DNA from: Dehalococcoidia bacterium
GTDB taxonomy: Bacteria; Chloroflexota; Dehalococcoidia; UBA2979
Direction: 5' to 3'
Length of the DNA stretch: 36,323 bases
Assembly (NCBI GenBank): GCA_030745285.1
Contig: JASLOV010000121.1
Location: 1-36,323 of the forward strand
Shown here piece by piece: positions 2,117 through 31,591 of this stretch. A program made the position numbers and the translations under genes. Within the stretch, counting starts at the first letter, position 1. Each line of letters begins with the position of its first letter. The notes under the pieces are model-generated. The model saw nothing but the letters and a program-made list of their open reading frames with translations, made no database searches and was not told the origin of the DNA.

Positions 2117-3147
2117 CCGAGTCCCGGTACGGACCGACAGAGGCGAGCGGTGTCTGGCTCCATCTCGAGTACGACGGAGAGAAGCTTGAAGGCGTCTCGC
2201 GAGAGCTTCTCGGCAAGGGACGCGAACTGGCGGATGGTCTCAGGGTGCCGGTCACCGGCATGCTGCTCGGCACCGCGCTCGTGAGTGTGGCGCGCGAGGC
2301 GATTGCGTATGGCGCCGACCGCGTGCTGATGGCGCAACACCCGCTGCTGGACCCGTACACCACGGACGCCCACGCGCGCGTCGCGTCGCAGCTCATAGGC
2401 GACGGCAAGCCCGACATCCTGCTGCTCGGCGCGACGCCCAACGGTCGCGACCTCGCCGGGCGGCTTGCGGTGCGCCTGCGGACCGGCCTGACGGCCGACT
2501 GCACTGACCTCGGGCTTGAGCAGGAGAGTGGCCTGCTGCTCGGAGAGGTCGTCGGCTTCGGCGGCGGCATCGTCGCCAGCATCAAGTGTGAGCAGCACCG
2601 CCCGCAGATGGCGACGGTGCGTCCTGGCGTCTTCGCGGAACCTGCTCCCGACGAGGCGCGGCAGGGCGCGGTCGAGGACGTGGCCGTCGATCTCAGCGAC
2701 CGTGATCTGCGCGTGCGGGTCGTGGAGCGCAGCGTGCAGCGCAGCGCCGGCATCACCGATGCGGAGTTGCTGGTGGTTGGCGGCGCGGGCACCGGCGGAG
2801 ACTTCGCCCTGCTGGAAGAGCTTGCCTCCCTGATCGGGGCGGAACTCGGCGTCACTCGCGTCGCCGTCGACGCCGGGTGGGCATCTCACGAGCGCCAGGT
2901 CGGCCAGACCGGCTACGTCACGCGTCCCCGGCTGACCCTCGTCTGCGGCGTGAGCGGCGCGCAGCAGTTCACCGTCGGGATCGACCAGGCCGAAGTCGTG
3001 CTCGCCGTCAACGCGGACGGCGAGGCCCCGATCTTCGATCGCGCGGACTACTCCGTCGTTGGCGACCTCTTCGAGGTGCTCCCGGCGATGATCGAGGAGG
3101 CGCGGGCGGCCCTTCAGGAGAAGGAGACGGCGGGAGCGCTGGCATGA
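2113..3147 (+). CDS. etfA: Electron transfer flavoprotein alpha subunit
   Basis: This is an internal ATG of track ORF 940..3147; the upstream part of that ORF is an out-of-frame shadow of the previous gene. N-terminal domain motifs are ADRVL and DILLLGATPNGRDLAGRLA. The C-terminal FAD-domain motif is VGQTGYVTRPRLTLVCGVSGAQQFTVGI. ATGA start/stop overlaps occur at both ends. Confidence 0.9.
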   Translation: MTESRYGPTEASGVWLHLEYDGEKLEGVSRELLGKGRELADGLRVPVTGMLLGTALVSVAREAIAYGADRVLMAQHPLLDPYTTDAHARVASQLIGDGKPDILLLGATPNGRDLAGRLAVRLRTGLTADCTDLGLEQESGLLLGEVVGFGGGIVASIKCEQHRPQMATVRPGVFAEPAPDEARQGAVEDVAVDLSDRDLRVRVVERSVQRSAGITDAELLVVGGAGTGGDFALLEELASLIGAELGVTRVAVDAGWASHERQVGQTGYVTRPRLTLVCGVSGAQQFTVGIDQAEVVLAVNADGEAPIFDRADYSVVGDLFEVLPAMIEEARAALQEKETAGALA

Positions 3148-4502: not shown

Positions 4503-5400
4503 CTAGCGATTCGCTGCGAGGTTGCCGCCGTTCGGACCGACGACCAGCACGGGCACGCCAGCGTGGCGCATGAGGTGCTCGGCCTGCTCCGGCGGCATGT
4601 ACGTCGCCGTGCCGACCATCATCCTCTGCTGCGTCAGCCGCGTGCGGTCGAGTGAGACCGCGAGCCCGAAGTCGCCGATCTTCGCCGTGCCATCCTCGGC
4701 CAGCCAGACGTTGCCGAGCGAGAGGTCGCGGTGCACGACGTTGTCGCCGTGTGCGGCCTCCAGCCCGCGGCAGATGTCCATCGCGATGCCGAGGGTGCGT
4801 GCCAGGGGGAGGTCCGCGTCAGCCTCGGCCAGCACGTCTTTCGCGGAGCCCCCCGCCATGTACTGGCTGACGATGTGGGGCTGGCTGACGCCCAAGACCT
4901 CCTCCTGCCCGAGGTCGAGCACAGGGACGATGTGCGGATGGTCGCCAAGGCGGCCCATCGCCTGCGCCTCGCGCGTGATGCGTTCGCGACCGGCGTCGTC
5001 GAGGCCCTCGGTGCGGATCAGCGCGAACGCCACCTCACGGTCGAGCAGGCTGTCATGCGCGAGGAAGACGCTTCTTGCCGCCTTCGCCGAGGAACTCCCG
5101 CACCTCGTAGCGGCCGCCGGCGAAGGCGGAGGGCATGGCGGGCTGAGGCATGGCGGGCTGAGCGGTTGCGCGGTCGGATGGTGATGGCTCGGACCGTGTG
5201 GCCGCTGGCGGGGTGGAGCCGGACGCCTGGTCCATCGCCTGCGCGGAGGCCAGCAGCATCTGCGCGTTGGCATTGTCGGCGTCGAGTGTGAGCGCCTCGC
5301 GGGCGCGACGGGCGGCGAGCGCCCAGTCCTCGGCGTCGGCGGCCGCCTCGGCCTGGTCGAGCAGGCCGTCGATGCGTCGCTGGATACGTTCGCCCGGCAT
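4503..5400 (-). pseudogene. Ser/Thr protein kinase remnant, frameshifted and C-terminally truncated
   Basis: ORF 5053..5400 (-) ends in the G-loop ...RYEVREFLGEGGKK. The kinase then continues in the frame of ORF 4503..6278 (-): VFLAHD..VAFALIR, HRDLSLGN, DFG, GTATYMPPEQA. The frame switch is near nt 5070. The domain stops right after the APE-type motif, so subdomains IX-XI are absent. Total length is 898 nt, not a multiple of 3. Confidence 0.7.
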
Positions 5401-5546: not shown

Positions 5547-6857
5547 ATGCCGATAGCCTGTCTCCTGGTCCCTTCGTTCGCGCTTGCCTGTGAACTGGCG
5601 GAGCGGCCCTCGCTCGCCAGCCGCCCGGTCGCGCTCGCCGATATCGCCGGCCTGCGCGTGGAGGACTCGACGGCGGAGGCGGCGAGGCGCGGGGCGCGGC
5701 CGGGGATGACGCTGCGGGAGGCGGTGGCGTTCTGCCCCTCGCTGGCAGTGGTGACGCCGCACCCTGCCCGTGCCGCTCGCGCGGCCGAGGCGCTGGTGGA
5801 CGCGATGGCGATGGTCAGTCCGCTGGTGGAAGAAGCTGCGCCGGGCACCGTCTTCGCCGACCTGGTGGGGCTCGTCGGGGCGAGTGGCCTCTACCCCGAA
5901 CGGGGGATGGTGGAGCATGCGGTGCTGGAGGCCGCCCCCCGGGCGCTCACGCCCCGTCTCGGGGTCGCCGAACGTCGATTCACTGCATACGCCGCTGCCC
6001 GCAGCGTCACCGCGGGCGGGGCCGCTGCGGGTGAAGTCGCAGTGGGTGAGGCTCCCGCACGCTACTTCCCGGCTGGTGCGGGTCCGGCCAGCGGGTTGGA
6101 GGTCGGCGAGGTTGGCGAAGCCTCGGTCCCGGCAGCGCTGCGCATCGAGCCGGACGAGGCGGTGACGTTCCTCGCCGGCAAGCCGGTCGAATGGCTGCCG
6201 CTGGACGGCGAGCGGCGCGAGCGGCTGCGGCTGCTGGGGATCGAGACGATGGGTGCGTTTGCCCTGCTGCCTCGTCACACCGTCGAGGCGCAGTTCGGCG
6301 TCGCGGGCGGCCGCGCCTGGCTGGCGGCGCGGGGCGAGGACCCGACCGCGTTGAGGCCCCGGCCGTTCGCCCGGGAGCGGGTGATCGAGCAGGCCGAGGC
6401 GCAGCCGCCGCTGGTGAGCCGCGAGGCGGTGCAGCTCACCACGCAGCAGCTGCTGGGCCGGGCGCTGCGGCAGCCGCGGGCGCAGCGGCGCTTTGTGCGC
6501 GTGGTGCGGCTGCGGGCCGTGACGGAGGACGGCCGGCTCTGGGAGCGCACACAGACGATGAAGGAGCCGACCGGCGACCGCGAACGGCTGTGGACGGCGG
6601 TCCGTCCGCTACTGGAGTACGCCGACTACCCCGGCCCGATCGCGGAGCTGGAGCTGGAGCTGGGCGGGCTGACGGCGGAGAGCGGCCGCCAGGGCGGGCT
6701 CTTCGTCGATCGCACGCGCGTCCGCGAGCAGCTGGACGAGATGGTGCGGCACATGAAGGTGCGCTACGGGCAGTCGCCGGTGGCGCGGGTGGTGGATGTG
6801 GAGCCATGGAGCCGCATCCCGGAGCGCCGTCACGCGCTGCTGGAGTACGACCCGTGA
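5547..6857 (+). CDS. imuB: ImuB-like Y-family DNA polymerase homologue (catalytically inactive type)
   Basis: The N-terminus MPIACLLVPSFALACE has the Y-family fold signature but lacks the catalytic Asp pair (DxD/FYA motif replaced), as in ImuB. It sits immediately upstream of dnaE2 and downstream of a LexA box. Confidence 0.8.
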   Translation: MPIACLLVPSFALACELAERPSLASRPVALADIAGLRVEDSTAEAARRGARPGMTLREAVAFCPSLAVVTPHPARAARAAEALVDAMAMVSPLVEEAAPGTVFADLVGLVGASGLYPERGMVEHAVLEAAPRALTPRLGVAERRFTAYAAARSVTAGGAAAGEVAVGEAPARYFPAGAGPASGLEVGEVGEASVPAALRIEPDEAVTFLAGKPVEWLPLDGERRERLRLLGIETMGAFALLPRHTVEAQFGVAGGRAWLAARGEDPTALRPRPFARERVIEQAEAQPPLVSREAVQLTTQQLLGRALRQPRAQRRFVRVVRLRAVTEDGRLWERTQTMKEPTGDRERLWTAVRPLLEYADYPGPIAELELELGGLTAESGRQGGLFVDRTRVREQLDEMVRHMKVRYGQSPVARVVDVEPWSRIPERRHALLEYDP

Positions 6858-6935
6858 ACGGTGAGGGCTTGTGGCGGCCCGGAGGGGAGGCGCGCCTCGT
6901 GCCGAAACGCTCGCTCGTCCTGAGCCCATCGAAGG

Positions 6936-7283
6936 ATGAAGGGTCCGATGACTGACAAGCGCCGTCGCGCCGACGGTCTGCTCCCGCTGGGGCTGCCCGT
7001 GCCGGTGCGCGTGCAGGTCGATGCCGCCGGTCTGCCGTCCACGGTGACGCTGGGCGGGCAGCAGGGCGGGGCGCCGCTGGCGGTTGAGCAGGTGGACGAG
7101 GCCTGGCGCATCGCCGAGGAGTGGTGGCGAGAGACGCCGCTCGGGCGCACCTATTACCGCGTGATCGTGGACGGCGGCCGTCCGCTCATGCTCTTCCACG
7201 ACGACCTCGCCGCCAGCAGCCCCGCTGGCACCGGCACGGCCGGCGCCAACCTCGAAGGGGACTGGTATGAGCAGCGGTACTAA
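6936..7283 (+). CDS. Small protein resembling the ImuB C-terminal module (WRIxEEWW ... R-Y-RV ... WY-QRY)
   Basis: 115-aa ORF; ATG 6948 has the better GAAGGG Shine-Dalgarno spacing. The motif string EAWRIAEEWWRETPLGRTYYRVIVDGGRPLMLFHD...GDWYEQRY matches my recollection of the conserved C-terminal region of long ImuB proteins. It is in the same frame as imuB, separated from it by two stops. Confidence 0.6.
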   Translation: MKGPMTDKRRRADGLLPLGLPVPVRVQVDAAGLPSTVTLGGQQGGAPLAVEQVDEAWRIAEEWWRETPLGRTYYRVIVDGGRPLMLFHDDLAASSPAGTGTAGANLEGDWYEQRY

Positions 7284-7331
7284 CGCTGTGATCCTCTGCC
7301 CGAAACCTGGCAGACGGCCCGTTCGGACGAC

Positions 7332-10300
7332 GTGCTGCCCTCGCTCCTTCCGTCGGACCGCCCGATGACGCGGGGGCGCGAGCAGTACGAAGGGCAGGAC
7401 CGTCCCGGCTTCATGGAGCGCTGGGATGAGTTCGAGGCTCGCCGCCGCGAGGTTGAGCAGGCGGTGGAGCGGGACACGCCGCGCTCCTTCGCGCCGCGCG
7501 ACCCCGCCGAGCCCGTCCCGCTCGAAGTGCTCGATGCGACGCCCTACGTAGAGCTGCAATTGCACTCCAACTACTCGCTGCTGGAGGGGGCTTCGAGCAT
7601 CGACGAGCTGGTCACGGCCGCCCGCGAGCAGGGGCACCGCGCGCTCGCGCTCACCGACCACAACGGGCTCTACGGGGCGATGGAGTTTGCGCGGGCGGCG
7701 AAGGAATCCGGCCTGCGCCCGATCATCGGGCTCGAACTGACGATCACCGAGAGCACTGCTGGGTGGGACGGTGGGGAGGACGTCGAAGGGGACGGCAAGG
7801 AGGGGAGGGCGAACGGCGCCGAGGGTGACTCCGAGGGTGATGGAAGCGGCATCCGTTCGCACATCACCCTGCTGGCGGAGACGAAGCAGGGCTACTCCAA
7901 CCTCTGCCGCCTCTCCAGCATCGCTTTTGGCCTGTTCGAGCAGAGCGATGAGGCGAAGGAGGAGCGGCGGCTGGACCCCTGTGTCGCCATCGAGGAGCTG
8001 GAGCGCCACGCCGCCGGGGTGATTGCGCTCACCGGCTGTCGCGATGGCCGCATCGCCCGTCTGGTGCAGGCGGGGCGCCACACCGAGGCCGAGCGGGCGC
8101 TGAGCCGCCTCGTCGACTGGTTCGGGCCGGAGAACGTCTTCGTCGAATTGCAGGACAACCTCGTCTTCGGCGACCGCTCGCGCAATCACGCGCTCGTCGC
8201 GCTGGCGGAACGGGTCGGGACCGGCGTCGTCGGCACCGGCAACGTGCACTACCACGAATCAGAGCGGCACCGGCTGCAGGACGTGATGGTCGCGATCCGC
8301 CATCGCAAGACCCTGGACGAGTGCCACCGCGAGCGACGCCCGAACGCGGAGTTCTACCTGCGCTCGCCGCAGGAACAGGCGCGGCGCTTCGCCGGCTACC
8401 ACCCGCAGGCGGCGGCGAACTCCGTCCGCATCGCGCGTCGTTGCCGCTTCGATCTCACCGCCGACCTCGGCTACCGGCTGCCTTCGCCCCGGCTCGAAGG
8501 CAGCGAGGAGACGCCGCAGCAGCAGCTAGAGCGCATCTGCCGCGAACGGCTGGCAGAGCGCTATGCCTCGTCCCCACCGCAAGAGCGAGAGGAGGGAGAA
8601 GAACGGCTGACGAAGGAGCTGGGGCTGGTCGAGCGCCACGGCCTGGCGGGCTTCTTCATGATCTATCACCAGATTTTTCAGCTTGCGAAAGAGGTGGCGG
8701 CGGAGATCCGCGGCCCCAGCGTGGGACGCAACCAGGCGAACCTACCCCCGGGCCGCGGGCGCGGCTCCTCGGTCTCCTCGATCATCTGCTACCTGATCGG
8801 GCTCTCACACATCGACCCGGTCAAGAACAAGCTCTTCATCGGTCGTTTCCTGAACGAAGAGATGCACAGCTTCCCGGATATCGACCTTGACTTCGCGCGC
8901 GATATCCGCGCGGAGCTGATCGAGCGCGTCTACGACGTTTGGGGGAAAGACCATGCGGCGCTGGTGGCGATCTTCCCCAGCTACCGCATGCGCAGCGCCG
9001 TCCGTGACATCGGCAAAGCGCTCGGCTTGCCGGCATCGGAGCTCGACCGCGTCGCCCGGCTCGCCGGCCCGTACAGTCACGCGGGCGACACCGGCGATGA
9101 GCTGCGTCGCACCCCCGTGTCGGCGGAGCGTGCCGACGAGCGCGGCTGGCGCGAGCTGGCGGAGCTGTCGGCGCAGCTGGCCGGCTTCCCGCGCCACATG
9201 TCGCAGCATGTCGGCGGGATGGTGATCTCCTCCGAGCCGCTGATCGACTACGTGCCCTGCCAGCCGGCGGCATGGAAGAATCGCTACCTCTGCCACTGGG
9301 ACAAGGACTCGATCGACGACGCGCGCATGGTGAAGATCGACTTCCTGGCGCTGGGCATGCTCTCGGTCGTCGAGGAGACGGTGGACCTCGTCGAATGCCA
9401 CGACGGCGTCAGCCTGGACCTCACCCGCATCGACTTCGAGGACACAGATGTCTACGACGGCATCTGCGCGGGCGACACCGTCGGTGTCTTCCAGATCGAG
9501 TCGCGGGCGCAGATCGCGATGTTGCCGCGCACGCAGCCGCGCAACCTCCAGGACCTGGCGGTGCAGGTCTCGATCGTGCGGCCGGGGCCGATCGTGGGCG
9601 GGGCGGTGAACCCGTACGTCCGGCGTCGCGAGCGCCAGCGCCGCGACCCGCGCTACGTGCCGGAGGTGCCGCACCCGCTGGTGCGCAGCGTGCTGGAGGA
9701 GACGCTGGGCGTGGTGATCTACCAGGAGCAGGTGCTGCTGGTTGCGGAGAAGCTCGCTGGCTTCACCCCCGGTGAGGCCGACCAGTTCCGGCGCGCGATG
9801 AGCCGCAAACGCTCGCTGGAGGCGATGGAGGGCTACCGCGAGCGCTTCATGGAGGGCGCCCGCGAGCGGAACGTGCCGGCCGGCGTCGCGGCGAAGGTGT
9901 TCGAGAACCTGCTCGGCTTCGCCGAGTTCGGGTTCCCGAAGAGCCACGGTTCGGCCTTCGCGCTGCTCGCCTATCAGACGACGTGGCTGAAGCGGTACCA
10001 TCCCGCGCCGTTCTTCTGCGGGCTCTTCAACAACCAGCCGATGGGGTTCTACCCGCCGCACGTGCTCACGAACGACGCCCTGCGCCACGAGATCGAGGTG
10101 CGCCGTCCCGACATCAACATCAGCGACGCGGCGTGTTCAGTGGAGGACCCGGAGACGGGCCGGGGCGCGGTCCGCGTCGGCCTGGGCTACGTGCGCGGCG
10201 TCGGCGAGGCGGGCGGGCGGAGGATCGACGAGGAGCGTGCGCGCACCGGCCCGTTCCGCTCGCTCTTCGACTTCATGCAGCGCACGGGTCTGAGCCGTGA

Positions 10301-10904
10301 GGCGACGACGAACCTGATCCGCATCGGCGCGTTCGACGACTTCGGGCTCAACCGCCGGGAGCTGATCTGGCAGCTCGGCCTCTTCGCCGACGGGTTGCAG
10401 CGAGCGGTGCTCGACCGGCCGCAGGAGCGGCAGTTGCGGCTGGAGCTGTCGACGAAGCAGGACGAGGTGGCGCTGGCCGACTTCAACGACTACCAGAGCA
10501 TGGCCGCCGACTACGATCTGCTTTCGCTCTCGCCGGACAGCCACCCGATGCAATTCCTGCGCCCGGCGCTCGGCGAGGGGGTCGCCTCCAGCCTGCACCT
10601 GCGCGCGATGGGGGGCGGCCAGGTGGTGGAAGTCTCCGGCCTCGTGGTCTGCCGCCAGCGGCCGCTCACGGCCAAGGGGATCATCTTCCTGCTGCTGGAG
10701 GACGAATTCGGGCTCGTCAACGTGCTCGTGAGCAAGGAACTCTCCGAGCGCTACAACGAGGTGGTCCGCACTGCGGCCTTCGTGCGCGTGCGGGGCGTGC
10801 TCGAGCGCCGCGCCGGCGAGCAGCGCACGCTCGTCGCTTCCGCGATGCGGGAGGTCCTGCCGGAACAGGCGATGCGCATGCCGAGCGGCAAGTCGTGGGG
10901 CTAA
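7332..10904 (+). CDS. dnaE2: Error-prone DNA polymerase III alpha-type subunit DnaE2
   Basis: PHP domain motifs (YVELQLHSNYSLLEGAS, LALTDHNGLYG), a Pol III alpha core and a C-terminal OB region. It is ~1190 aa and follows imuB. The start is uncertain: GTG 7332, ATG 7365 or ATG 7413. Confidence 0.9.
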   Translation: MLPSLLPSDRPMTRGREQYEGQDRPGFMERWDEFEARRREVEQAVERDTPRSFAPRDPAEPVPLEVLDATPYVELQLHSNYSLLEGASSIDELVTAAREQGHRALALTDHNGLYGAMEFARAAKESGLRPIIGLELTITESTAGWDGGEDVEGDGKEGRANGAEGDSEGDGSGIRSHITLLAETKQGYSNLCRLSSIAFGLFEQSDEAKEERRLDPCVAIEELERHAAGVIALTGCRDGRIARLVQAGRHTEAERALSRLVDWFGPENVFVELQDNLVFGDRSRNHALVALAERVGTGVVGTGNVHYHESERHRLQDVMVAIRHRKTLDECHRERRPNAEFYLRSPQEQARRFAGYHPQAAANSVRIARRCRFDLTADLGYRLPSPRLEGSEETPQQQLERICRERLAERYASSPPQEREEGEERLTKELGLVERHGLAGFFMIYHQIFQLAKEVAAEIRGPSVGRNQANLPPGRGRGSSVSSIICYLIGLSHIDPVKNKLFIGRFLNEEMHSFPDIDLDFARDIRAELIERVYDVWGKDHAALVAIFPSYRMRSAVRDIGKALGLPASELDRVARLAGPYSHAGDTGDELRRTPVSAERADERGWRELAELSAQLAGFPRHMSQHVGGMVISSEPLIDYVPCQPAAWKNRYLCHWDKDSIDDARMVKIDFLALGMLSVVEETVDLVECHDGVSLDLTRIDFEDTDVYDGICAGDTVGVFQIESRAQIAMLPRTQPRNLQDLAVQVSIVRPGPIVGGAVNPYVRRRERQRRDPRYVPEVPHPLVRSVLEETLGVVIYQEQVLLVAEKLAGFTPGEADQFRRAMSRKRSLEAMEGYRERFMEGARERNVPAGVAAKVFENLLGFAEFGFPKSHGSAFALLAYQTTWLKRYHPAPFFCGLFNNQPMGFYPPHVLTNDALRHEIEVRRPDINISDAACSVEDPETGRGAVRVGLGYVRGVGEAGGRRIDEERARTGPFRSLFDFMQRTGLSREATTNLIRIGAFDDFGLNRRELIWQLGLFADGLQRAVLDRPQERQLRLELSTKQDEVALADFNDYQSMAADYDLLSLSPDSHPMQFLRPALGEGVASSLHLRAMGGGQVVEVSGLVVCRQRPLTAKGIIFLLLEDEFGLVNVLVSKELSERYNEVVRTAAFVRVRGVLERRAGEQRTLVASAMREVLPEQAMRMPSGKSWG

Positions 10905-22930: not shown

Positions 22931-24942
22931 CCGCCGTGGGGACCGGCGCGGTGGTCTCCGCCTCCATGAGCGGGCATGCTACCGCCGTTGCTGCCGGGCA
23001 TTCCGTCGGGGTGCCCGCCGCCCACCATCCCCCCGGGGCCGCCATGGCCCGCCGCGGCCGCATGAGCAGGCGAGGCCACCGGTGTGCGCTTCGCCTCACC
23101 GTCAGACCCGTCCTCGGGCAACTCGTCGGCAAGGGGCGTGTCGCGCTCGACGGCGCCGTCTTTGAACTGCTCGTGGTAGAGCCTCGCGTAGAGGCCGCCC
23201 TCGTTGACCAGTTCGGGGTGTGTGCCGCGCTCGACGATGCGCCCGCCGTCCATCACCAGGATCTGGTCGGCCGCGATGATCGTGGAGAGGCGGTGCGCAA
23301 TCACGATCGAGGTCCGTGACTGCATCACCGGCTCGAGCGCCTCCTTGATCAGCCGTTCGCTCGCGCTGTCGAGCGAGCTGGTGGCCTCATCGAGCAGCAG
23401 GATGCGCGGGTCCTTGAGAATGATGCGCGCGATAGCGATACGCTGCTTTTCGCCGCCTGAGAGCCGGTAGCCGCGCTCGCCGACGAGCGTGTCGTAGCCG
23501 CGCGGCATCTGCGCGACGATCTCGTGCACGTACGCGGCCTTCGCCGCAGCCTCCAGTTCCTCGTCGGTCGCGTCCGGCTTCGCGTAGAGCAGATTGTCCT
23601 TCACGGAGGCGTGGAAGAGGTAGGTCTCCTGCGTGACCATGCCAATGTGGTTGCTGAGGGAGGGGAACGTGAGCTCGCGCACGTCGACGCCGTCGAGCGT
23701 GACGACGCCCGCATCGGGGTCGTACAGCCGCGAGACGAGGTAGGTCGCCGTCGTCTTGCCGGCGCCGGAGGGCCCGACCAGCGCGACCAGTTCGCCCGGC
23801 CTGGCCTCGAAGGTGATGTCCTTCAGCACCGGTGTGGCGGCGTCGTAGCCGAAGTCGACGTGCTGGAAGGCGACGGTGCGGTCCTGCGCCGGCAGCTCCG
23901 TCGGGTTCGGGCGCTCGGCGATCGCGGGCTCCATGTCCAGGTACTCGAAGATGCGCTCGAAGAGCGCGAACGAGCCGGCGATGTCCACGTGCACGCTGAA
24001 CAACTGCGAGACCGGCCCGAACAGCCGGTTGACGAGGAAGACGAAGGCAACGACCTCGCCGACCAGCATGTCTCCGCTGATCACCAGCCAGCCGCCGTAG
24101 CCGTAGACCATCGCCGGGGCGACCGCGCCGTAGAGCGTCACCACCATGAAGAACCAGCGCCCCACCATGCTCTGGGAGACCTGCTCCTTCATCACCTCCG
24201 CGGATGCGACCTCGAAGGTGGCCTCCTCCTGCCGTTCGCGGCCGAAGCTCTTCACCAGCACTGCGCCGGAGATGTTGAGCTTCTCCTGCACGATCATCGT
24301 CATCTCGCCGAGCGCGGCCTGCGCGCGGCGCCCGGCGCGGAAGCGGAGGTTGCCGAACTGCTGCGTCGGGAAGATGAAGGCGGGGAGGGCAATCAGCGCG
24401 ACGATGGTGAGCCGCCAGTCCAGCCACACCATCACGGCGACCGTCGTCGCGACGGTGACCGTGTTCGTCATGACGTTGGTGAAGCTGGTCGTCACCACCG
24501 CCTGCACGCCGTTCATGTCGTTGGTGAGGCGCGTCATGATCTCGCCGCTGCGGGTGGCGGTGAAGAAGCTGAGCGGCATGCGCAGGACATGGTTGTAGAG
24601 CTGGCCACGGACGTCGTGCATCATGCGCTGGCCGATGATGGTGTTGCCCCAGTTCTGGGCGACCTGCACGAGGCCCGTCACGACCGGGATTGCCACCATC
24701 GCGCCGGCCAGCACCACCAGCAGCGTGCGATCCCCGTCGGGGATGGCGACATCGATCAGCTGTTTGATCAGCAGCGGCGGGATCAGGCTGAGGCTGGCCG
24801 AGACCAGCACCAGCACGAACGTCAACGCGATCAGCTTTCGGTAGGGGCGGGCGTAGGCAAGGATGCGGCCCAGCAGCGACCACGAAATCGCGTTGTCCTC
24901 TTTGTCGCCCCAGTCCGCCGCGCCGGCGCCGTGTGCCATCAT
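22927..24942 (-). CDS. MsbA-type ABC exporter (fused permease plus ATPase) with a His/Gly/Met-rich C-terminal tail
   Basis: Six-TM N-terminal half, Walker A GPSGAGKTT, signature LSGGEKQRIAIAR and Walker B ILLLDEATS. The ~75-aa tail reads ...AHAAAAGHGGPGGMVGGGHPDGMPGSNGGSMPAHGGGDHRAGPHGG. Confidence 0.9.
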   Translation of the reverse strand: MMAHGAGAADWGDKEDNAISWSLLGRILAYARPYRKLIALTFVLVLVSASLSLIPPLLIKQLIDVAIPDGDRTLLVVLAGAMVAIPVVTGLVQVAQNWGNTIIGQRMMHDVRGQLYNHVLRMPLSFFTATRSGEIMTRLTNDMNGVQAVVTTSFTNVMTNTVTVATTVAVMVWLDWRLTIVALIALPAFIFPTQQFGNLRFRAGRRAQAALGEMTMIVQEKLNISGAVLVKSFGRERQEEATFEVASAEVMKEQVSQSMVGRWFFMVVTLYGAVAPAMVYGYGGWLVISGDMLVGEVVAFVFLVNRLFGPVSQLFSVHVDIAGSFALFERIFEYLDMEPAIAERPNPTELPAQDRTVAFQHVDFGYDAATPVLKDITFEARPGELVALVGPSGAGKTTATYLVSRLYDPDAGVVTLDGVDVRELTFPSLSNHIGMVTQETYLFHASVKDNLLYAKPDATDEELEAAAKAAYVHEIVAQMPRGYDTLVGERGYRLSGGEKQRIAIARIILKDPRILLLDEATSSLDSASERLIKEALEPVMQSRTSIVIAHRLSTIIAADQILVMDGGRIVERGTHPELVNEGGLYARLYHEQFKDGAVERDTPLADELPEDGSDGEAKRTPVASPAHAAAAGHGGPGGMVGGGHPDGMPGSNGGSMPAHGGGDHRAGPHGG

Positions 24943-25079
24943 CGTCGTGCCCCCTCGCCATCCATCGCAGGTCGCTCCAACTATACTCGAAGTCGACTAT
25001 TCGAACCGGGCTAAGATACGATTCCCCTGTCTATTCAGAAGCCGCCCGGTCGGTTCGTCGAGGCCTGAGAGGAACACCG

Positions 25080-25667
25080 ATGCCCGATGCCACCGATGCG
25101 CCCAACGTCGCCGACGCTGCCGACGAGCTGCTGCTGCTCGGTCTGCTCTCCGGTTCGTCGATGTACGGCTACCAGCTCAACGACGTGATCGAGCACCACC
25201 TGCCGATGTTCTGGCGGCTGAAGCCGTCCACCGCCTACAGCCGCCTTGACCGGCTCTCCGCGCGAGGGCTCGTCGAGACGAAGACGGAGCGCGTGGGGAA
25301 GCGCCCCGAGCGCAAGGTCTACGACCTCACCGAGGCCGGCCGGGCACGCTTCGAGCAGTTGTTGCGTGCGAACCTGCGCTCGGCGGACGTGCCGTCGCCG
25401 GTCGGCGACCTGGGCGTGCTCTTCTACCGAGCGCTGCCGGTGGACGAGGTGCAGGCACTGCTCGCGGAGCGGCGAACAGCGACCGCCAATCAGCGTCCGC
25501 GGCTGAGCGAGCTGGTCGAACGCCACCCGCCGCTCAGCGCGGGCCGCCTGGTCGCAGAACACTCGCTGGCGCACCTTGATGCAGAGCTGGCGTGGCTCGA
25601 CGGGGTGCTGGAGCGCGACCTCACCGCTCCCGCCGAGCCTGCCGCGCCGGCCGAGGGCGCCCGCTGA
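25080..25667 (+). CDS. PadR-family transcriptional regulator
   Basis: ATG 25080 with GAGAGGAA upstream. wHTH motifs LLLLGLLSGSSMYGYQL and RKVYDLTEAGR. Divergent from the ABC exporter. Confidence 0.85.
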   Translation: MPDATDAPNVADAADELLLLGLLSGSSMYGYQLNDVIEHHLPMFWRLKPSTAYSRLDRLSARGLVETKTERVGKRPERKVYDLTEAGRARFEQLLRANLRSADVPSPVGDLGVLFYRALPVDEVQALLAERRTATANQRPRLSELVERHPPLSAGRLVAEHSLAHLDAELAWLDGVLERDLTAPAEPAAPAEGAR

Positions 25668-26446
25668 CGCCCCCCACGCCCTCGCTGCCCCGGGTCGCAC
25701 GCTACTTCGATGCGCTCTACGCCGCGTTGGCGGCCAGCGAGACGCACCGCGCCGTCGGCCGTGAGGTGCTGGGCGATGGTTACGCCGGGCAGCTCGGCTA
25801 CGCCGGTGAGCACGAGCTGTTGCGAATGGCGGAGGTATGCGGGATGGCGCCCGGCCGCACGGTGCTCGACCTTGGCTGCGGCACGGGCGGCGTCGCTTCG
25901 TGGTGGGCACGTCGCACCAGCGCGCGCGTGATCGGGGTCGACTGCTCCGGCACTGCACTGCGCATCGGGGCGGCAGACGAGTCCCGCGACGCCCGGGCGG
26001 CGTTCGTCGCCGCCGACGCGACCGCGTTGCCCCTGGCGGCATCCAGTCTCGACGGCATCGTCTCGCTGGACGGGTTCGGGCTCGACTTCGCCCGGCTCGC
26101 GCGGGAGGCGCGCCGGCTGCTGCGGGGTGGCGGCCGCGTCGCCCTGCTGATCAGCCTGCCTGCCGGCGGCGCGGGCCCGGCGCTCGAAGCCCTCGCCGCC
26201 GCGGGCCTTGCCGAGTGCTTCGTTGAGGACCAGATGGAGCCGGCGGCGGCACTGATGTCGCGCTGGCGCGAGGCTTATCGGCGCGCCGCGTCAGGCCACA
26301 TCGCTGAGGTGGGGGAGCGTGTGCACCGCGGTATCGTCGATGAAATCGACGAACTGCTGGTGGGCTATCGTGAGGGCACGACGGAGCGGGTGCTCATCGG
26401 CGCAACCCGACTTCAGGCAGCCCGGAGTGCGCGGGTCGCGCGCTGA
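25592..26446 (+). CDS. Class I SAM-dependent methyltransferase (start uncertain)
   Basis: Motif I VLDLGCGTGGV, then LLRGGGRVALL. The only ATG (25592) overlaps the padR 3' end by 76 nt, so the true start may be non-canonical near 25664. Confidence 0.75.
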   Translation: MARRGAGARPHRSRRACRAGRGRPLTPPTPSLPRVARYFDALYAALAASETHRAVGREVLGDGYAGQLGYAGEHELLRMAEVCGMAPGRTVLDLGCGTGGVASWWARRTSARVIGVDCSGTALRIGAADESRDARAAFVAADATALPLAASSLDGIVSLDGFGLDFARLAREARRLLRGGGRVALLISLPAGGAGPALEALAAAGLAECFVEDQMEPAAALMSRWREAYRRAASGHIAEVGERVHRGIVDEIDELLVGYREGTTERVLIGATRLQAARSARVAR

Positions 26447-26598: not shown

Positions 26599-26706
26599 CT
26601 ACGTCCCCCACATCCCGCCGGCGAGGGCGGAAGCCGGGCTCGCCGCAAGGGCGACCGCAGCCAGGAACAGAGATGCTGCCACCGTTGTCACTGAGCGCTT
26701 GGCCAT
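26599..26706 (-). CDS. 35-aa pre-peptide: Sec-type signal peptide plus a 6-8 aa C-terminal tail (MAKRSVTTVAASLFLAAVALAASPASALAGGMWGT)
   Basis: ATG 26706 has GGGAGG 7 nt upstream, and the stop is TAG at 26599-26601. The peptide has a basic n-region, a 17-aa hydrophobic core and AxA cleavage motifs. It is the inner start of track ORF 26599..26793 and is co-oriented with the upstream regulator. Confidence 0.5.
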   Translation of the reverse strand: MAKRSVTTVAASLFLAAVALAASPASALAGGMWGT

Positions 26707-26810
26707 AAGTAAACCTCCCAGGTATTCGGGCAACGGATAGTCCGATGCCACTCCCAAAGCCTGGTCGGAAGATATGGCGCGAGCTATCGCCACAATCTCG
26801 CCACCAACGC

Positions 26811-26828
26811 GTGAGGACCGAGTGAGGA
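26811..26828 (-). promoter_or_regulatory. Two perfect heptamer direct repeats with 11-bp phasing (candidate SARP binding site)
   Basis: Plus strand GTGAGGA-ccga-GTGAGGA (26811-17 and 26822-28), which reads TCCTCAC-N4-TCCTCAC in the direction of the peptide ORF. Located 105-122 nt upstream of its ATG. Confidence 0.45.
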
Positions 26829-26884
26829 TTGACCGAGAGATAGAACGTGCGTGCGAACGTCACGGACAGGGGAGGCGGTGCGTG

Positions 26885-27796
26885 CTACGCGTCGAGCGCC
26901 GCGCCGGACAGCACCTGCCGGTACGCGTGTTGCAGTGAGTCCGAGGGCTCTTCCGCGAGCTCTTCGAGCATCGAATTGTGGAGCCTGCGGTAGGCGCGCA
27001 CCGCCCCATCCAGGCGCCCCGCGCGCGCATGCGCCCTCATCACGCACAGTGCCGCCGTCTCGTTCACCGGGTCGATGTCCCAGATTGACTCGCCGAGGCG
27101 AATCGCCTGCTCCCAGTCCTCGCTGCGCAGTGCGTGCTCGGCGAGCGAGAGCAGACAGGAGAGGTAGCGGTCCTCATAGCGCCGGCGGGCGTCGTCCGCC
27201 CAGTCGGAGTCGAACGTCTCGGCAAAGGGACCGCGATAGAGGCGGACTGCCGCCGTCAGGTCCTGCGCCCAGCCGTCGCTCCCGGCGGAGTCCCGTTCCG
27301 CGTCCTGTGTGTGGTGTTCGAACTCCGCGGCGTCGTAGGAGATCTTGAACGCCGGGTTGACCTGGTAGGCCCCGTCGCTGTGCACGATCACGCCGGGGAT
27401 CGCCTTGCGCAGGCGGTGCAGGTTGGAGTGGAAGTGGCTGTTCAGCCGCTTCGGATCGAGATCGGGCCAGAGGTCGAGCGCGATCTGCTCTTTGCGCAGC
27501 GGCCGCTTCTGGTGAACGAGGTAGAAGAACATCTCCTTGCTGCTGGCGCTGCGCCACTCCAGGTCGGCGATCTGGTGCCTGCGGACGGTCACGCGCGGGC
27601 TGCCGAAGGCCTCGGCGCGAATCGGGGCCTCGTCCTCCGCCAGCGCCGGCTCTTCGTCGTCCGAGATCGGGCGCAGCCCAACCCGCAGCGTCCGGTAGTA
27701 GTCGCCGCCGGCCCGTCGTGCCGCGCCGTATTCGATCAGCTCTGGGACGTGTCGAGCTTCCGCGTGCAAGAACTGATCGTATCCGAGTTCCTCCAC
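26885..27796 (-). CDS. SARP module (OmpR-type winged helix plus BTAD); probably the C-terminal part of the upstream STAND regulator, separated from it by one in-frame TAG
   Basis: wHTH: VTVRRHQIADLEWRSASSKEMFFYLV...LDLWPDLDPKRLNSHFHSNLHRLRKAI. BTAD: YDAAEFE...AVRLYRGPF...WADDARRRYEDRYL...VMRAHARAGRLDGAVRAYRRL. The 30 codons upstream of GTG 27796 are open, coding-like and in frame with the stop of ORF 27887..29827. Confidence 0.8.
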   Translation of the reverse strand: MEELGYDQFLHAEARHVPELIEYGAARRAGGDYYRTLRVGLRPISDDEEPALAEDEAPIRAEAFGSPRVTVRRHQIADLEWRSASSKEMFFYLVHQKRPLRKEQIALDLWPDLDPKRLNSHFHSNLHRLRKAIPGVIVHSDGAYQVNPAFKISYDAAEFEHHTQDAERDSAGSDGWAQDLTAAVRLYRGPFAETFDSDWADDARRRYEDRYLSCLLSLAEHALRSEDWEQAIRLGESIWDIDPVNETAALCVMRAHARAGRLDGAVRAYRRLHNSMLEELAEEPSDSLQHAYRQVLSGAALDA

Positions 27797-27886
27797 GATC
27801 TCGTGTACCCGCCTGAGGTGCTCGATCGACTGCCGGCGCCTGCGGCGATGGAAGCAGGCGGCGGCGAGCAGCAGCGTCGCGACCGC

Positions 27887-29976
27887 CTATTCTCGCAGCG
27901 TCCCGGCCTCCACGGCCTCGGACACGGCCAGCTCCAGTGCTGTGATCGCCTCGTCGTAGCGATGCTCGCTCACGAGCGTCGCGCCCACGCCGATGCGGAA
28001 TCCGAGCTGGAGGAAGAGCGCGCCGCGCTGCTCGGCCTGCCGCAGCCCGTGTTCGAGCGGGGTGTGGGCGCGGGCAAATTCGCCGCGACCGCGGTTCGAC
28101 ATCGCGAGGCCCAGCGTGGCGTAGGCGACCAGCATCGGGTCGTCGATCTCGTACGCCTGGCCGCGGCGGAAGCCGATCTCGCGCGACCGCTCGATCACGT
28201 CGGCGAACGTGTCGTGAGCGGTCTCCAGTTCGCCCAGCATGTGCTGACCATCCCCGAGGTTGTTCATCGTCGCGGTCTGCGCGGCCGGGTCGTCCAGCAT
28301 GCGCCAGCGCCGCAGAGCCGCCGTGTACTCCTCCATCGACCGGGTCAGTGAGCCGCGGTAGAAGAGCGAGAGTCCGAAGCCGTCGTGCGCCTCCGCGGCA
28401 CGATGGTGATCACCATCGCGATCGAAGCCCTCCGCGGCGGATCGGAAGCGCTCGCAGGATGCCTCGAACTGGCCGCTCTGCCCCAGCGCGATCCCCTCTT
28501 CGAGGTCGATCTCGGGGAACAGCGGGTCATCGTCCGGGAGTTCCTCGCCGGCTGTCAGCCGAGCGCGACGGCAGGCCCCGATCGCTTCGCTCAGCTGTCC
28601 CACCTGCCGCAGCGAGACGGCCCGGTACAGCTCGCGGCGGGCGCGCTGGTCGACGGAGAGTCCCTGCTCGTCGATGGAGTCGAGCTGCGCCAGCCCCTGC
28701 TGCTCCTTGAGCATCTTCGTCGCCAGCCGGGCGCGGGTCATGGTGAGGTCGGTGTCCCCGGCGAGGATCTCCGGGGACAGGCGGTCGAGCCAGCCGGAGA
28801 GTGTCGTCCACTCGCCCCGCTGGTAGAGCTCCCGGTGCATGTCGCGTATCTCCTGGACCACCTCCGGCCAGTCCTCCGCCTCGATCGAGAGGTTCACCGC
28901 CTCGCGACGCTGCCCCCGCCGTGCGCACATCGCGGCCGCGGAACGGCGCAGCTGCAGCAACCGCTGCGGGTCGCGGCGTGCGAGCCGCTCCAGCAGATGC
29001 TCGCGGAGCAGCGAGTGCATCCGCAGCCAGCGATCATCGAGGCTCGTGATCAGGTGGTTGGTGCTCTCCAGATCCCGCAGATGCATGCGCGCCTCGGGAT
29101 CGGCCGTCAGCTCCTCGGCCTGCTCGGCGTCGAATGACTCCAGCACTGAGCAGGCGCTGAGCAGCTCGAACTGCGGCGCGGGCAGCTGTCCCAGTACCTC
29201 GTGCTCGACGAAGTCCGAGAGTACGAACTCGGAGCCGGGCGCGGTGCCCCCACGCGGGCGTGAGGGGTCGTAGTGATCCGCCAGGATCGCAAGCGCCGCC
29301 GCCCAGCCGCCGGCTCGCTGCACGACTTCGAGGCCCGGGGCGCCGTCGATGCCGGAGCGGCGCATGAATTCGACGGCTTCGTCGTCGGTGAACTCGAGGT
29401 CGGCTGCGCCGAGCGAGGAGGCGCGGCGTTGGGCGGTCATGCGGGTCAGGGACGGCAGCCGGGGCCAGGTGCGTGAGAGCGCATAGAGCCGCATGTTCAT
29501 GGGCATCCCGCGGACCAGTGCGTCCAGTAACTCCAGCGTCCCCGGTGCCTCGTCGAGTACCTGCAAGTCGTCCACGATCAGGAGGAACATGTCGTCGATC
29601 TCGTGGTGCACGTTCGCGACGAACTGGCCGATGAGCGCCGTGGCCTGGGGCGGTTCTGCGCCGCCGTGCAGCCGTTCGTACAGCTCGTTGAGGGTGCCGG
29701 GGAACGCGACCCTGACGGCGCCCACGAGGTTGGAGAGCAAGGTCAGCGGGTCAAGGTCCAGGCGGTCCACGGAGAGCCATGCCGCCGGCAGCCCGGCGTC
29801 GTCGTACCAGTCGACGGCGAGCGTCAACTTGCCGTACCCAGCGGGGCGCTGACCACGATCACTTCGGACTCAAGCGCGTCGCTCAGCGACTGATGCAGGC
29901 GCTCACGGCGGATGGTGTCATGGCGGCTGCGGGGAGGCGCTAGCTTGGGCGAGAACTGCTGATCGAGCGGTACCAT
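27887..29976 (-). pseudogene. MalT-like STAND ATPase with a TPR-like sensor domain, frameshifted in the Walker A region
   Basis: ATG 29976 gives MVPLDQQFSPKLAPPRSRHDTIRRERLHQSLSDALESEVIVVSAP. A frame change then occurs in the G4/C4 run 29843-29846. The protein continues as AGYGKLTLAVDWYDD... (Walker A), LLIVDDLQ (Walker B), GGWAAALAILA, and multiple TPR-like repeats to TAG 27887-27889. Confidence 0.75.
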
Positions 29977-31066: not shown

Positions 31067-31591
31067 CTATCGAGCGTGCTTGTCGCGCTGTTCGTCCTGG
31101 AGCGCGCCAATCTGCTCCGCGGCGCGGCCAAAGATGTCCGGTACGGGCCAGCCGTTCAGGCCGGCGTAGGTGTCCAGCTGCGAGCGGTGGTGGATGTCGT
31201 GCTCCACCATCATCGCCAGCACCCGCCAGCCGGAGAGCGACCCATCCGTGTCGATCATCTCGATGCGGCGATCCAGCCACTCGTCCGGCGTGCCGTCCAG
31301 CAGCCGGTGCAGCTCCTCCCCGCTGGCCTGCACGGCCGGCAGCCAATGCTCGCGGGAGCTGACATCCGGGGCGGACGGGCTGATCCAGCCCTCATCGCGG
31401 TACGCGCTCGCGAAGTAGAGCCGCGAGCCGGCGATGTGGCCGACGATCTGGTTGATCGACCACGCGTTCTCGCCCTCACCGCCTTCGGGCGTCCAGCCGT
31501 CCGCCTCCGGCGGCAGCGCCGCGACGTCGCGCATCGCCCGGCGGTGGACCGAGTCGAAGTAGCGGAAGAACCCGTCGATCGACCCGTACAT
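31067..31591 (-). CDS. DinB-family (DinB_2-like) protein
   Basis: FFRYFDSVHRRAMRDV..., INQIVGHIAGSRLYF and MMVEHDIHHRSQL form a His triad pattern. The GGAGGAG Shine-Dalgarno site lies inside the end of the cupin gene. Confidence 0.7.
   Translation of the reverse strand: MYGSIDGFFRYFDSVHRRAMRDVAALPPEADGWTPEGGEGENAWSINQIVGHIAGSRLYFASAYRDEGWISPSAPDVSSREHWLPAVQASGEELHRLLDGTPDEWLDRRIEMIDTDGSLSGWRVLAMMVEHDIHHRSQLDTYAGLNGWPVPDIFGRAAEQIGALQDEQRDKHAR

Follow-up and report, generated by a model that had tools for sequence, protein, structure and literature searches.

A conserved regulator and mini-ORF unit in Chloroflexota as a candidate peptide-signalling cassette built on a STAND-SARP protein

Introduction

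All described cases of signalling by secreted peptides through cytoplasmic receptors of the RRNPP type come from Bacillota and the mobile elements of this phylum (PMC10075063). RRNPP receptors are proteins of about 280–450 amino acids (aa) that consist of tetratricopeptide repeats (TPRs) and usually carry a small N-terminal helix-turn-helix of the XRE type. Activators of the SARP class follow a promoter rule of their own, in which direct repeats are spaced by 11 bp (or 22 bp) and the 3′ repeat lies 8 bp from the −10 box (PMC10936776). SARP-LAL regulators bind heptameric direct repeats (PMC5930380, PMC3367932). Here, we analyse a locus from a Dehalococcoidia bacterium (phylum Chloroflexota) in which a large STAND-TPR-SARP regulator gene is followed by a short open reading frame (ORF), the mini-ORF, that encodes a predicted signal peptide. 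The locus lies on contig JASLOV010000121.1 of assembly GCA_030745285.1, and the whole analysed stretch of 36,323 nucleotides (nt) is referred to below as the window.

A preliminary description of this DNA had proposed that the regulator, the mini-ORF and a pair of heptamers between them constitute the receptor, pro-peptide and operator of a peptide-sensing circuit, in an arrangement not known to have been described. This concept is largely borne out by our analysis, whereas the operator that had been proposed was wrong. In the literature searched, we found no account that connects encoded peptide signals with Chloroflexota or with STAND or SARP regulators; the cassette is real and conserved, and apparently undescribed. 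We tentatively read it, with confidence just short of even, as a self-contained autoinducing peptide-signalling cassette with a complete sensing loop.

Results

A signal-peptide mini-ORF is conserved downstream of the regulator

To compare the locus with its relatives we used every family locus with downstream DNA left, collected by exact-protein look-ups, a GTDB species scan and a metagenome scan. This gave 27 distinct loci, with regulators 36–81% identical to that of the window, all from Chloroflexota ('Dehalococcoidia') metagenome-assembled genomes (MAGs) or metagenomes. None of the family loci is on a viral contig, and a phage-borne, arbitrium-like system was therefore discarded.

In the window, the mini-ORF, its Shine–Dalgarno sequence and the 178-nt spacer that separates its start from the regulator stop codon (26887–26885) were found where the preliminary description had placed them (table 1). 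The synteny of regulator and signal-peptide ORF that it had proposed to look for extends to the family. A co-oriented mini-ORF of 32–38 codons directly follows the regulator at 27/27 loci, with 43–214 nt between the regulator stop codon and the operator box described below, and 72–105 nt between the box and the mini-ORF start codon. The flanking genes vary between loci (methyltransferase/PadR, FHA, PGA_cap, DUF192, AhpC and others). Regulator and mini-ORF form a syntenically conserved two-gene unit, and their strict linkage in changing neighbourhoods suggests a self-contained module.

The start codon, Shine–Dalgarno sequence, reading frame, length and stop position of the mini-ORF are kept in 26/27 loci, and a purine-rich motif of the GGAG type precedes the start in nearly all orthologues. 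In most of the mini-ORF pairs compared, the proportion of non-synonymous differences (pN) was lower than that of synonymous differences (pS): 0.06 versus 0.35 between the window and locus L001, 0.04 versus 0.25 between L010 and L097, and 0.08 versus 0.49 between L014 and L094. These values point to purifying selection on the mini-ORF.

No gaps interrupt the alignment of the encoded peptides between the hydrophobic core and the stop codon. By inspection and a heuristic, they have K or R within the first three to seven residues and a hydrophobic core of about 17–20 residues, and the family mini-ORFs show the features of a Sec signal peptide, namely a basic n-region, an h-region and small residues at positions −3 and −1. 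The last two, A27 and A29, are at least 90% conserved; among 25 tabulated orthologues, A occupies −3 in 23 (V in the other two) and −1 in 24 (G in the remaining one). Small or helix-breaking residues (P, G, S, T or N) are common ahead of the cleavage site. The tail behind it has six residues in 24/25 (five in L012, and five also in the separate L101 pair), with E or G at position 1 (Glu in 14/25), V at position 2, I or V at position 3, W at position 4 (16/25) and G or P at position 5. Predicted cleavages, with the cut given as a slash, include SPVSALA/GGMWGT, NPVTAFA/GVAWGT, SPISALA/SPVWGT, SPVAAFA/EVIWGS, AAPALA/EVIWDL, SASASA/GVIWPW, GTSALA/EVIFPW, GSAFA/EEIGGL and GAALA/ECEWTC.

A strict heuristic for a signal peptide with a short tail was passed by one of the 433 ORF starts of 25–50 aa in the window, the mini-ORF alone. 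Of the 27 family loci, 18 passed it, whereas all 58 controls, taken from behind the genes of other MalT-like regulators, failed. A single-sequence search of 1.84 billion representatives returned the L001 peptide as its sole match. Taken together, we consider it very probable that the mini-ORF is a real gene for a secreted or membrane-targeted peptide.

A SARP-type operator precedes the mini-ORF

The preliminary description had taken a TCCTCAC-N4-TCCTCAC pair in the spacer as the SARP operator. The pair does exist at that place, but in a multiple alignment it falls inside an insertion specific to the window lineage, and it is absent in L001, L002, L005 and L007; we therefore rejected it. The expectation of 11-bp-phased direct repeats ahead of the mini-ORF nevertheless held, as a conserved 22-bp operator lies 7 nt downstream of the pair. 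Its consensus is cTGG(T/C)nAGAnn TTGG(T/C)nAGAgg, and some loci have a third repeat upstream. A TAnnnT element follows exactly 8 bp after the box in 23/26 loci; in the window, transcription would start near 26762.

The family operator pattern has one match in the window versus 0.03 expected. Perfect 7-mer repeats with 11-bp spacing as such are not rare, with nine in the window versus 5.2 ± 2.5 expected, and two of the nine, the conserved pair and the TCCTCAC pair, adjoin in this spacer. As judged from the sequence, the mini-ORF promoter has SARP-type geometry and is predicted to be activator-dependent. A consensus promoter and terminator scan returned nothing, which is expected since the promoter is of the activator-dependent kind and the hairpins behind the mini-ORF are GC-rich. 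We think it likely that the regulator drives the peptide gene via the box, with its own SARP domain as the predicted binder. Covariation between the recognition helix and the box was too confounded by phylogeny to be used.

No other operator copy of at least 12 bits was detected in the window or in the 3–6 kb flanks of the family loci, except for a weak box at L006. This second box (ATCGCGAGAAACTGGCGATAAC, 17.9 bits, approximately 2547–2568, minus strand) is upstream of a divergent gene of the SBP_bac_5 (oligopeptide-binding) type. It has no TAnnnT at +8 and is the sole hint of a linked peptide importer.

The second of the two hairpins 3′ of the mini-ORF has counterparts at L001 (approximately 9530–9570) and L008 (approximately 5130–5170), with compensatory changes in the stem. 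The hairpins lack a U-tract, and Rfam gave no match for them or for the spacer. Both probably serve as a terminator that the convergent genes share; alternatively, the second may be a small 3′ element.

The regulator combines a MalT-type core with a SARP module

Repair of the reading frame gives a window regulator of 1030 aa with TPRs and a Pfam BTAD match (E = 9.3e-20); Pfam Trans_reg_C had no match in this protein. Intact orthologues are 1052–1128 aa long and contain AAA_16, WHD_MalT, TPR_MalT and BTAD domains. A homologue search returned about 50 clusters with E < 1e-186, of which the named ones are almost all Chloroflexi/Dehalococcoidia MAG proteins. Compared with known structures, the family profile matched the MalT nucleotide-binding oligomerization domain (NOD; 8bob) over positions 12–418 (E = 1.8e-49) and the AfsR SARP domain (8hvr/8k60) over positions 820–1063 (E about 1e-18), where it aligns with AfsR residues 24–266; EmbR was matched as well, and the AfsR/EmbR SARP domain match reached E = 8e-19. 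The NCBIfam MalT model matched residues 11–430 with E = 1.6e-60, at 205 bits versus an equivalog cutoff of 537.

An AlphaFold model of P0001, an orthologue with 81% identity, has a mean predicted local distance difference test score (pLDDT) of 88.2. It comprises a NOD (25–235), a winged-helix domain, a helical arm, about 8.5 TPRs (442–783), a disordered linker (799–815) and a SARP module, in which an OmpR-type winged helix (818–914) is followed by BTAD (915–1057), the order typical of the SARP class. Foldseek searches with this model retrieved MalT (8bob, E = 1e-13), the archaeal STAND-TPR protein 6mfv and the AfsR SARP domain (8hvr, TM-score 0.81, root-mean-square deviation 3.2 Å), and the TPR domain resembled the peptide-groove-binding TPRs of LGN/Pins. 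The N-terminal architecture of MalT/LAL proteins (a STAND NOD with intact Walker A, a winged helix and a superhelical sensor) is present in the family, but the Walker A of the window copy is not intact. The LuxR/GerE helix-turn-helix (PF00196) is absent from the regulator and the SARP module takes its place. Profile matches, model and Foldseek thus agree with the MalT-like STAND, TPR and C-terminal SARP organization given in the preliminary description.

The same description had called the receptor a non-RRNPP protein, and here too Pfam, NCBIfam and structure-profile matches concur. The regulator matched none of the RRNPP families in Pfam or NCBIfam, and its sole link to RRNPP proteins in the PDB is a generic TPR similarity to NprR (E = 2e-4 and 1e-7). 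RRNPP membership was rejected on fold family, size, output domain and phylum. An Avs-like anti-phage STAND system was likewise not retained, as PADLOC returned just a generic TPR match.

The window copy of the regulator is a pseudogene

Compared with P0001, the window regulator carries three lesions (table 1) and is a pseudogene. Two had been reported before, the frameshift and the in-frame stop codon, and both are present; the third, the deletion within the TPRs, had been missed. At the Walker A, the family-invariant APAGYGKSTL reads APLGT/GKLTL in the window, with substitutions at invariant positions. An independent scaffold from TARA Oceans, L106, shares 99.89% identity with the window (five mismatches, no gaps) and has the same regulator ORF fragments of 50, 646 and 303 aa. 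As L106 carries the same breaks, sequencing error was ruled out as the source of the lesions.

With L002 as outgroup, the window branch showed 57 versus 40 amino-acid changes and 59 versus 48 synonymous changes (p = 0.67). Because amino-acid change on this branch is not in significant excess relative to synonymous change, we conclude that the inactivation is recent; long-standing decay was not supported. Given the three lesions, the circuit is probably defunct in this genome. Most likely the loop is open in the window, leaving a signal-blind strain whose peptide gene and promoter are still intact.

We also considered whether the 303-aa ORF (GTG 27796 to 26885, minus strand), which covers the last TPRs and the whole SARP module, could act as a constitutive activator. 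In vitro, the SARP domain of AfsR shows constitutive activity when isolated (PMC10936776). This idea was set aside as speculation, as the ORF has no convincing ribosome-binding site and its expression is doubtful.

Disruptions were also found elsewhere in the family. The L011 regulator has an in-frame TGA at residue 528, and the canonical start codon is lost in the L011 mini-ORF region (approximately 6330–6436). The L014 regulator has one frameshift (approximately 2368), and that of L102/L103 has two (approximately 3311 and 3900), identical in two samples. These cases may reflect recurrent receptor loss or assembly error, and on the sequence evidence the cassette may often be lost.

Divergent relatives and the limits of the family

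At L101 (2525–2926), a regulator of 36% identity is followed by two tandem paralogous mini-ORFs with the tails QSPFL and QSPFF, each with a CGGCGAGATTTTGGCGAGA box of its own. At L112 (3300–4418), a STAND-TPR-SARP regulator of 26% identity is followed by three 11-bp repeats (TTCAGCGAGnA) and a TAAGGT box. Behind these, a signal-peptide ORF of 46 aa is the first gene of an operon that also contains DUF5317, Frankia_peptide and HATPase genes. The L112 arrangement suggests that small secreted ORFs driven by SARP boxes form a wider class, and both loci reinforce the link between box and small secreted ORF. L115 (231–5934) has two paralogous STAND-TPR-SARP regulators in tandem on one contig, P0050 and then a 1071-aa protein. 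The cassette could not be generalized to all STAND-BTAD proteins, as those of the P0088 (proteobacterial) and P0057 types are without a mini-ORF.

Locus layout and neighbouring genes

The window has 70% GC and the content of an ordinary chromosome, including DnaE2/ImuB-like genes, BipA and a B12 riboswitch. A plot of GC content at third codon positions (GC3) by frame places the mini-ORF within a 438-bp tail-to-tail spacer; it is the last gene in its direction of transcription, as the genes below it are on the plus strand and convergent (table 1).

Table 1. Features of the cassette and of the adjoining genes in the window.
Feature	Position	Strand	Remarks
Regulator pseudogene	26885–29976	−	MalT-type NOD, winged-helix domain, helical arm, about 8.5 TPRs, linker, C-terminal SARP
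−1 frameshift in Walker A	29831–29833 (about 29832)	−	relative to P0001
30-aa in-frame deletion	junction 28150–28156	−	relative to P0001; about one TPR helical hairpin (P0001 residues 610–639)
In-frame TAG	27887–27889	−	CAG to TAG; P0001 has Gln (LREQA)
TCCTCAC-N4-TCCTCAC	26828–26822 and 26817–26811	−	imperfect 11-bp tandem duplication in an insertion of about 21 nt
Conserved 22-bp operator	26783–26804	−	11-bp direct repeats GTGGCGAGATT GTGGCGATAGC; predicted SARP-dimer site; in all 27 loci
−10 box TATCTT (TAnnnT)	26769–26774	−	exactly 8 bp past the operator
Shine–Dalgarno GGGAGG	26714–26719	−	7 nt ahead of the ATG
Mini-ORF	ATG 26706 to stop TAG 26601–26599	−	35 codons; product MAKRSVTTVAASLFLAAVALAASPASALAGGMWGT
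Predicted Sec signal peptide	26620–26706	−	29 aa, MAKRSVTTVAASLFLAAVALAASPASALA; basic n-region, hydrophobic core, A-L-A site
Predicted mature hexapeptide GGMWGT and TAG	26599–26619	−	from the tail alignment
Two GC-rich hairpins 3′ of the mini-ORF	26591–26551 and 26531–26490	−	second with conserved loop TTTGACGAGCCAG
PadR-type regulator	24933–25667	+	converges on the mini-ORF (GC3 frame plot)
Methyltransferase	25592–26446	+	converges on the mini-ORF (GC3 frame plot)

Upstream of the regulator, L001, L002 and L007 have an EAL/HDOD gene and a gene of 61–68 aa between a DinB gene and a MaoC-like pair. The EAL/HDOD gene and the 61–68-aa minus-strand gene are absent from the window (approximately 31072–31084, corresponding to L001 3217–5012), a second gene loss in the neighbourhood of the regulator. 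Elsewhere in the window, a cobalamin riboswitch (RF00174; 19940–20107, minus strand; 47.7 bits versus a gathering score of 31.5) precedes, as judged by synteny with L002, a minus-strand Peripla_BP_2/CbiA-type gene pair. An ImuB-like gene of the IMS family, a short ORF and a DnaE2-like gene for Pol III alpha (5547–10904, plus strand) are arranged as in a mutasome cassette.

Discussion

A proposed autoinducing circuit

We propose the following circuit. Basal expression of the mini-ORF could come from read-through from the co-oriented regulator gene. A dimer of the SARP domain would bind the two 11-bp repeats, which substitute for a −35 box and end 8 bp ahead of the −10 box, and recruit RNA polymerase as AfsR does, so that the mini-ORF is transcribed from its own promoter. 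The pre-peptide is predicted to be exported via Sec and cut after A-x-A by signal peptidase I, which would free the C-terminal hexapeptide (GGMWGT in the window, E/G-V-I-W-G/P-x in the family). Chloroflexota are generally regarded as single-membrane bacteria, and the hexapeptide would build up outside the cell. It would re-enter the cell and bind the TPR sensor of the STAND regulator, relieving autoinhibition by the NOD and TPRs much as maltotriose does for MalT. The peptide gene would thereby come under positive feedback, and a regulon would be activated.

The step from the peptide back to the regulator is the critical one, and that the hexapeptide is the regulator's ligand is our hypothesis. 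In a partial Mantel test, tail distance correlated with TPR distance once NOD and SARP were accounted for (r = 0.32, p = 0.014, n = 17), while the corresponding tests for NOD (r = −0.17) and SARP (r = 0.08) were not significant. We take this covariation as suggestive only. That the inducer of this STAND-SARP regulator is the encoded hexapeptide, which would make the cassette the first genetically encoded peptide-pheromone system with a cytoplasmic receptor outside Bacillota, is a possibility we regard as somewhat less likely than not.

Several observations weigh against a sensing loop. The Mantel signal is weak, with 17 loci and three tests, and tests of this type are prone to phylogenetic artefacts. 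An oligopeptide permease is neither conserved beside the cassette nor present in the 36-kb window, and a second target promoter was not found in the window or within 3–6 kb at any locus. A product of 33–38 aa is unusually short for processing by Sec and signal peptidase I, and other STAND-SARP proteins, of the P0057 and P0088 types, have no mini-ORF beside them. Finally, the regulator is broken in the window, L011, L014 and L102/L103, and the cassette is therefore dispensable; its activity in the window genome is not to be assumed.

Alternative explanations

The main alternative is that the peptide is output only. The regulator would sense another cue, a metabolite or nucleotide state alone, its main local target would be the gene for the secreted hexapeptide, and the peptide would act elsewhere without feedback, for example as a signal for a membrane sensor, an interspecies signal, or a surface-active or antimicrobial peptide. 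The SARP box supports the direction from regulator to peptide gene, which this explanation shares with ours, and the covariation is the sole pointer to the opposite direction. It also accommodates the lack of a linked importer, and AfsR, the best-studied STAND-SARP protein, has no known inducer either (PMC10936776). We nonetheless judge it rather unlikely. That the two genes stay strictly linked while their neighbours change suggests a module complete in itself, divergence of the tail follows that of the TPRs and not that of NOD or SARP, and no conserved sensor kinase or other receptor is found near the cassette.

Alternatively, the product could stay uncleaved as a single-pass membrane mini-protein with its N-terminus inside and a six-residue external tail, modulating a membrane complex, or the regulator at the membrane. 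Its 33–38 aa and its hydrophobicity are like those of bacterial small membrane proteins, and products so short must insert after translation ends. The residues around the predicted cleavage site are difficult to reconcile with this: −3 and −1 are A/V and A/G in 25/25 orthologues, and P, G, S, T or N are common ahead of the site, a pattern that only recognition by signal peptidase explains. Moreover, constraint on length and sequence is stronger in the tail than in the hydrophobic core. We therefore regard an uncleaved membrane protein as improbable.

Still less probable, to the point of being a marginal option, is a precursor of a ribosomally synthesized and post-translationally modified peptide (RiPP), whose C-terminal core would be modified by enzymes encoded elsewhere. 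A short precursor whose conserved C-terminal core has many Trp, Pro or Cys residues (ECEWTC, TGACGG) would suit such a product, as would the Frankia_peptide-family gene in the downstream operon of the distant relative L112 and a weak NCBIfam TPR match to HaaT, far below cutoff. However, no modifying enzyme or maturase is conserved by the cassette, where neighbours vary from locus to locus, and the leader is a canonical Sec signal peptide, unlike a RiPP leader.

That the mini-ORF is an open frame arisen by chance in a GC-rich spacer, or that the conserved element is a terminator or non-coding RNA and not a gene, might be suspected from the abundance of spurious Ala-rich ORFs at 70% GC, a mini-ORF GC3 of just 0.78 and the single-sequence search that found no homologue beyond L001, yet this very improbable reading is already contradicted by the comparative data, namely the start, Shine–Dalgarno sequence, frame, length and stop conserved in 26/27 loci, pN below pS, a heuristic passed by 1/433 window ORF starts and 0/58 controls, and the lack of an Rfam match.

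Implications of a sensing cassette

If the autoinducing cassette is what we propose, its implications go beyond this locus. Peptide signalling through intracellular TPR receptors is treated as a speciality of Bacillota (PMC10075063); a version in Chloroflexota would be convergent and would widen the range of lineages and protein scaffolds on which such circuits evolve. The hexapeptide would be the first ligand to become known for a STAND-SARP regulator of any kind, and uncultured Chloroflexota from marine and terrestrial habitats would possess an autoinduction loop resembling quorum sensing, in which lineage-specific peptide variants and frequent receptor loss would resemble pherotypes and signal-blind variants. 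The cassette also bears on what the TPR sensor domains of large SARP/LAL regulators bind. As each receptor is accompanied by a candidate ligand that can be synthesized and by a defined 22-bp operator, the sensing hypothesis is directly testable even though the hosts are uncultured. A further consequence concerns annotation: the 33–38-aa mini-ORF genes of the cassette are at present nameless or 'hypothetical' in public data.

Comparison with known systems

Of the SARP-LAL regulators, those of the PimR type also join a SARP module to the ATPase half of a LAL protein. In PimR, however, the SARP module is N-terminal, and the gene is set in polyene biosynthetic clusters without a linked peptide gene.

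With MalT and other LAL proteins the family shares the N-terminal NOD, winged-helix domain, arm and superhelical sensor, and the expected logic would also be shared, in that an inducer at the sensor licenses ATP-dependent activation. It differs in its SARP output, where MalT has a LuxR/GerE helix-turn-helix, and its score falls well short of the MalT equivalog cutoff. As candidate inducer, a gene-encoded peptide takes the place of the sugar.

AfsR and the other large SARP proteins of Streptomyces contain the same modules (SARP, STAND NOD and TPR), and the SARP domain superposes on that of AfsR. The promoter geometry is identical: there are two 11-bp repeats, and 8 bp separate the 3′ one from the −10 box. 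The best-known AfsR target, afsS, is a small ORF too. The module order is reversed, NOD-TPR-SARP here versus SARP-NOD-TPR in AfsR, and the NOD is of the MalT type, whereas that of AfsR is of the NB-ARC type. AfsR itself is under the control of phosphorylation and ATP, and no gene for a secreted peptide adjoins its own.

The cassette departs from RRNPP systems in its receptor, a protein of about 1060 aa that joins a STAND ATPase of the MalT type to a SARP module at the C-terminus, and in its phylum, Chloroflexota. Maturation would need signal peptidase I alone, and no Opp transporter is linked to the cassette, bar the SBP_bac_5 gene beside L006. Its logic is nonetheless close to that of group III Rgg/SHP, ComR/XIP and AimR/AimP. 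In these systems, as here, a small ORF adjoins the gene for a cytoplasmic TPR transcription factor, with the small ORF downstream in our case. The predicted active peptide comprises the C-terminal 5–9 residues of a precursor of about 20–45 aa with a basic N-terminus and a hydrophobic body. The Glu at the start of 14/25 tails is a further likeness, and the Trp-rich tail of the family recalls XIP. The regulator appears to act directly on the peptide gene, from which autoinduction would follow, and the peptides diversify between lineages in a pherotype-like manner. In terms of function, RRNPP-type signalling is thus the closest match among known systems.

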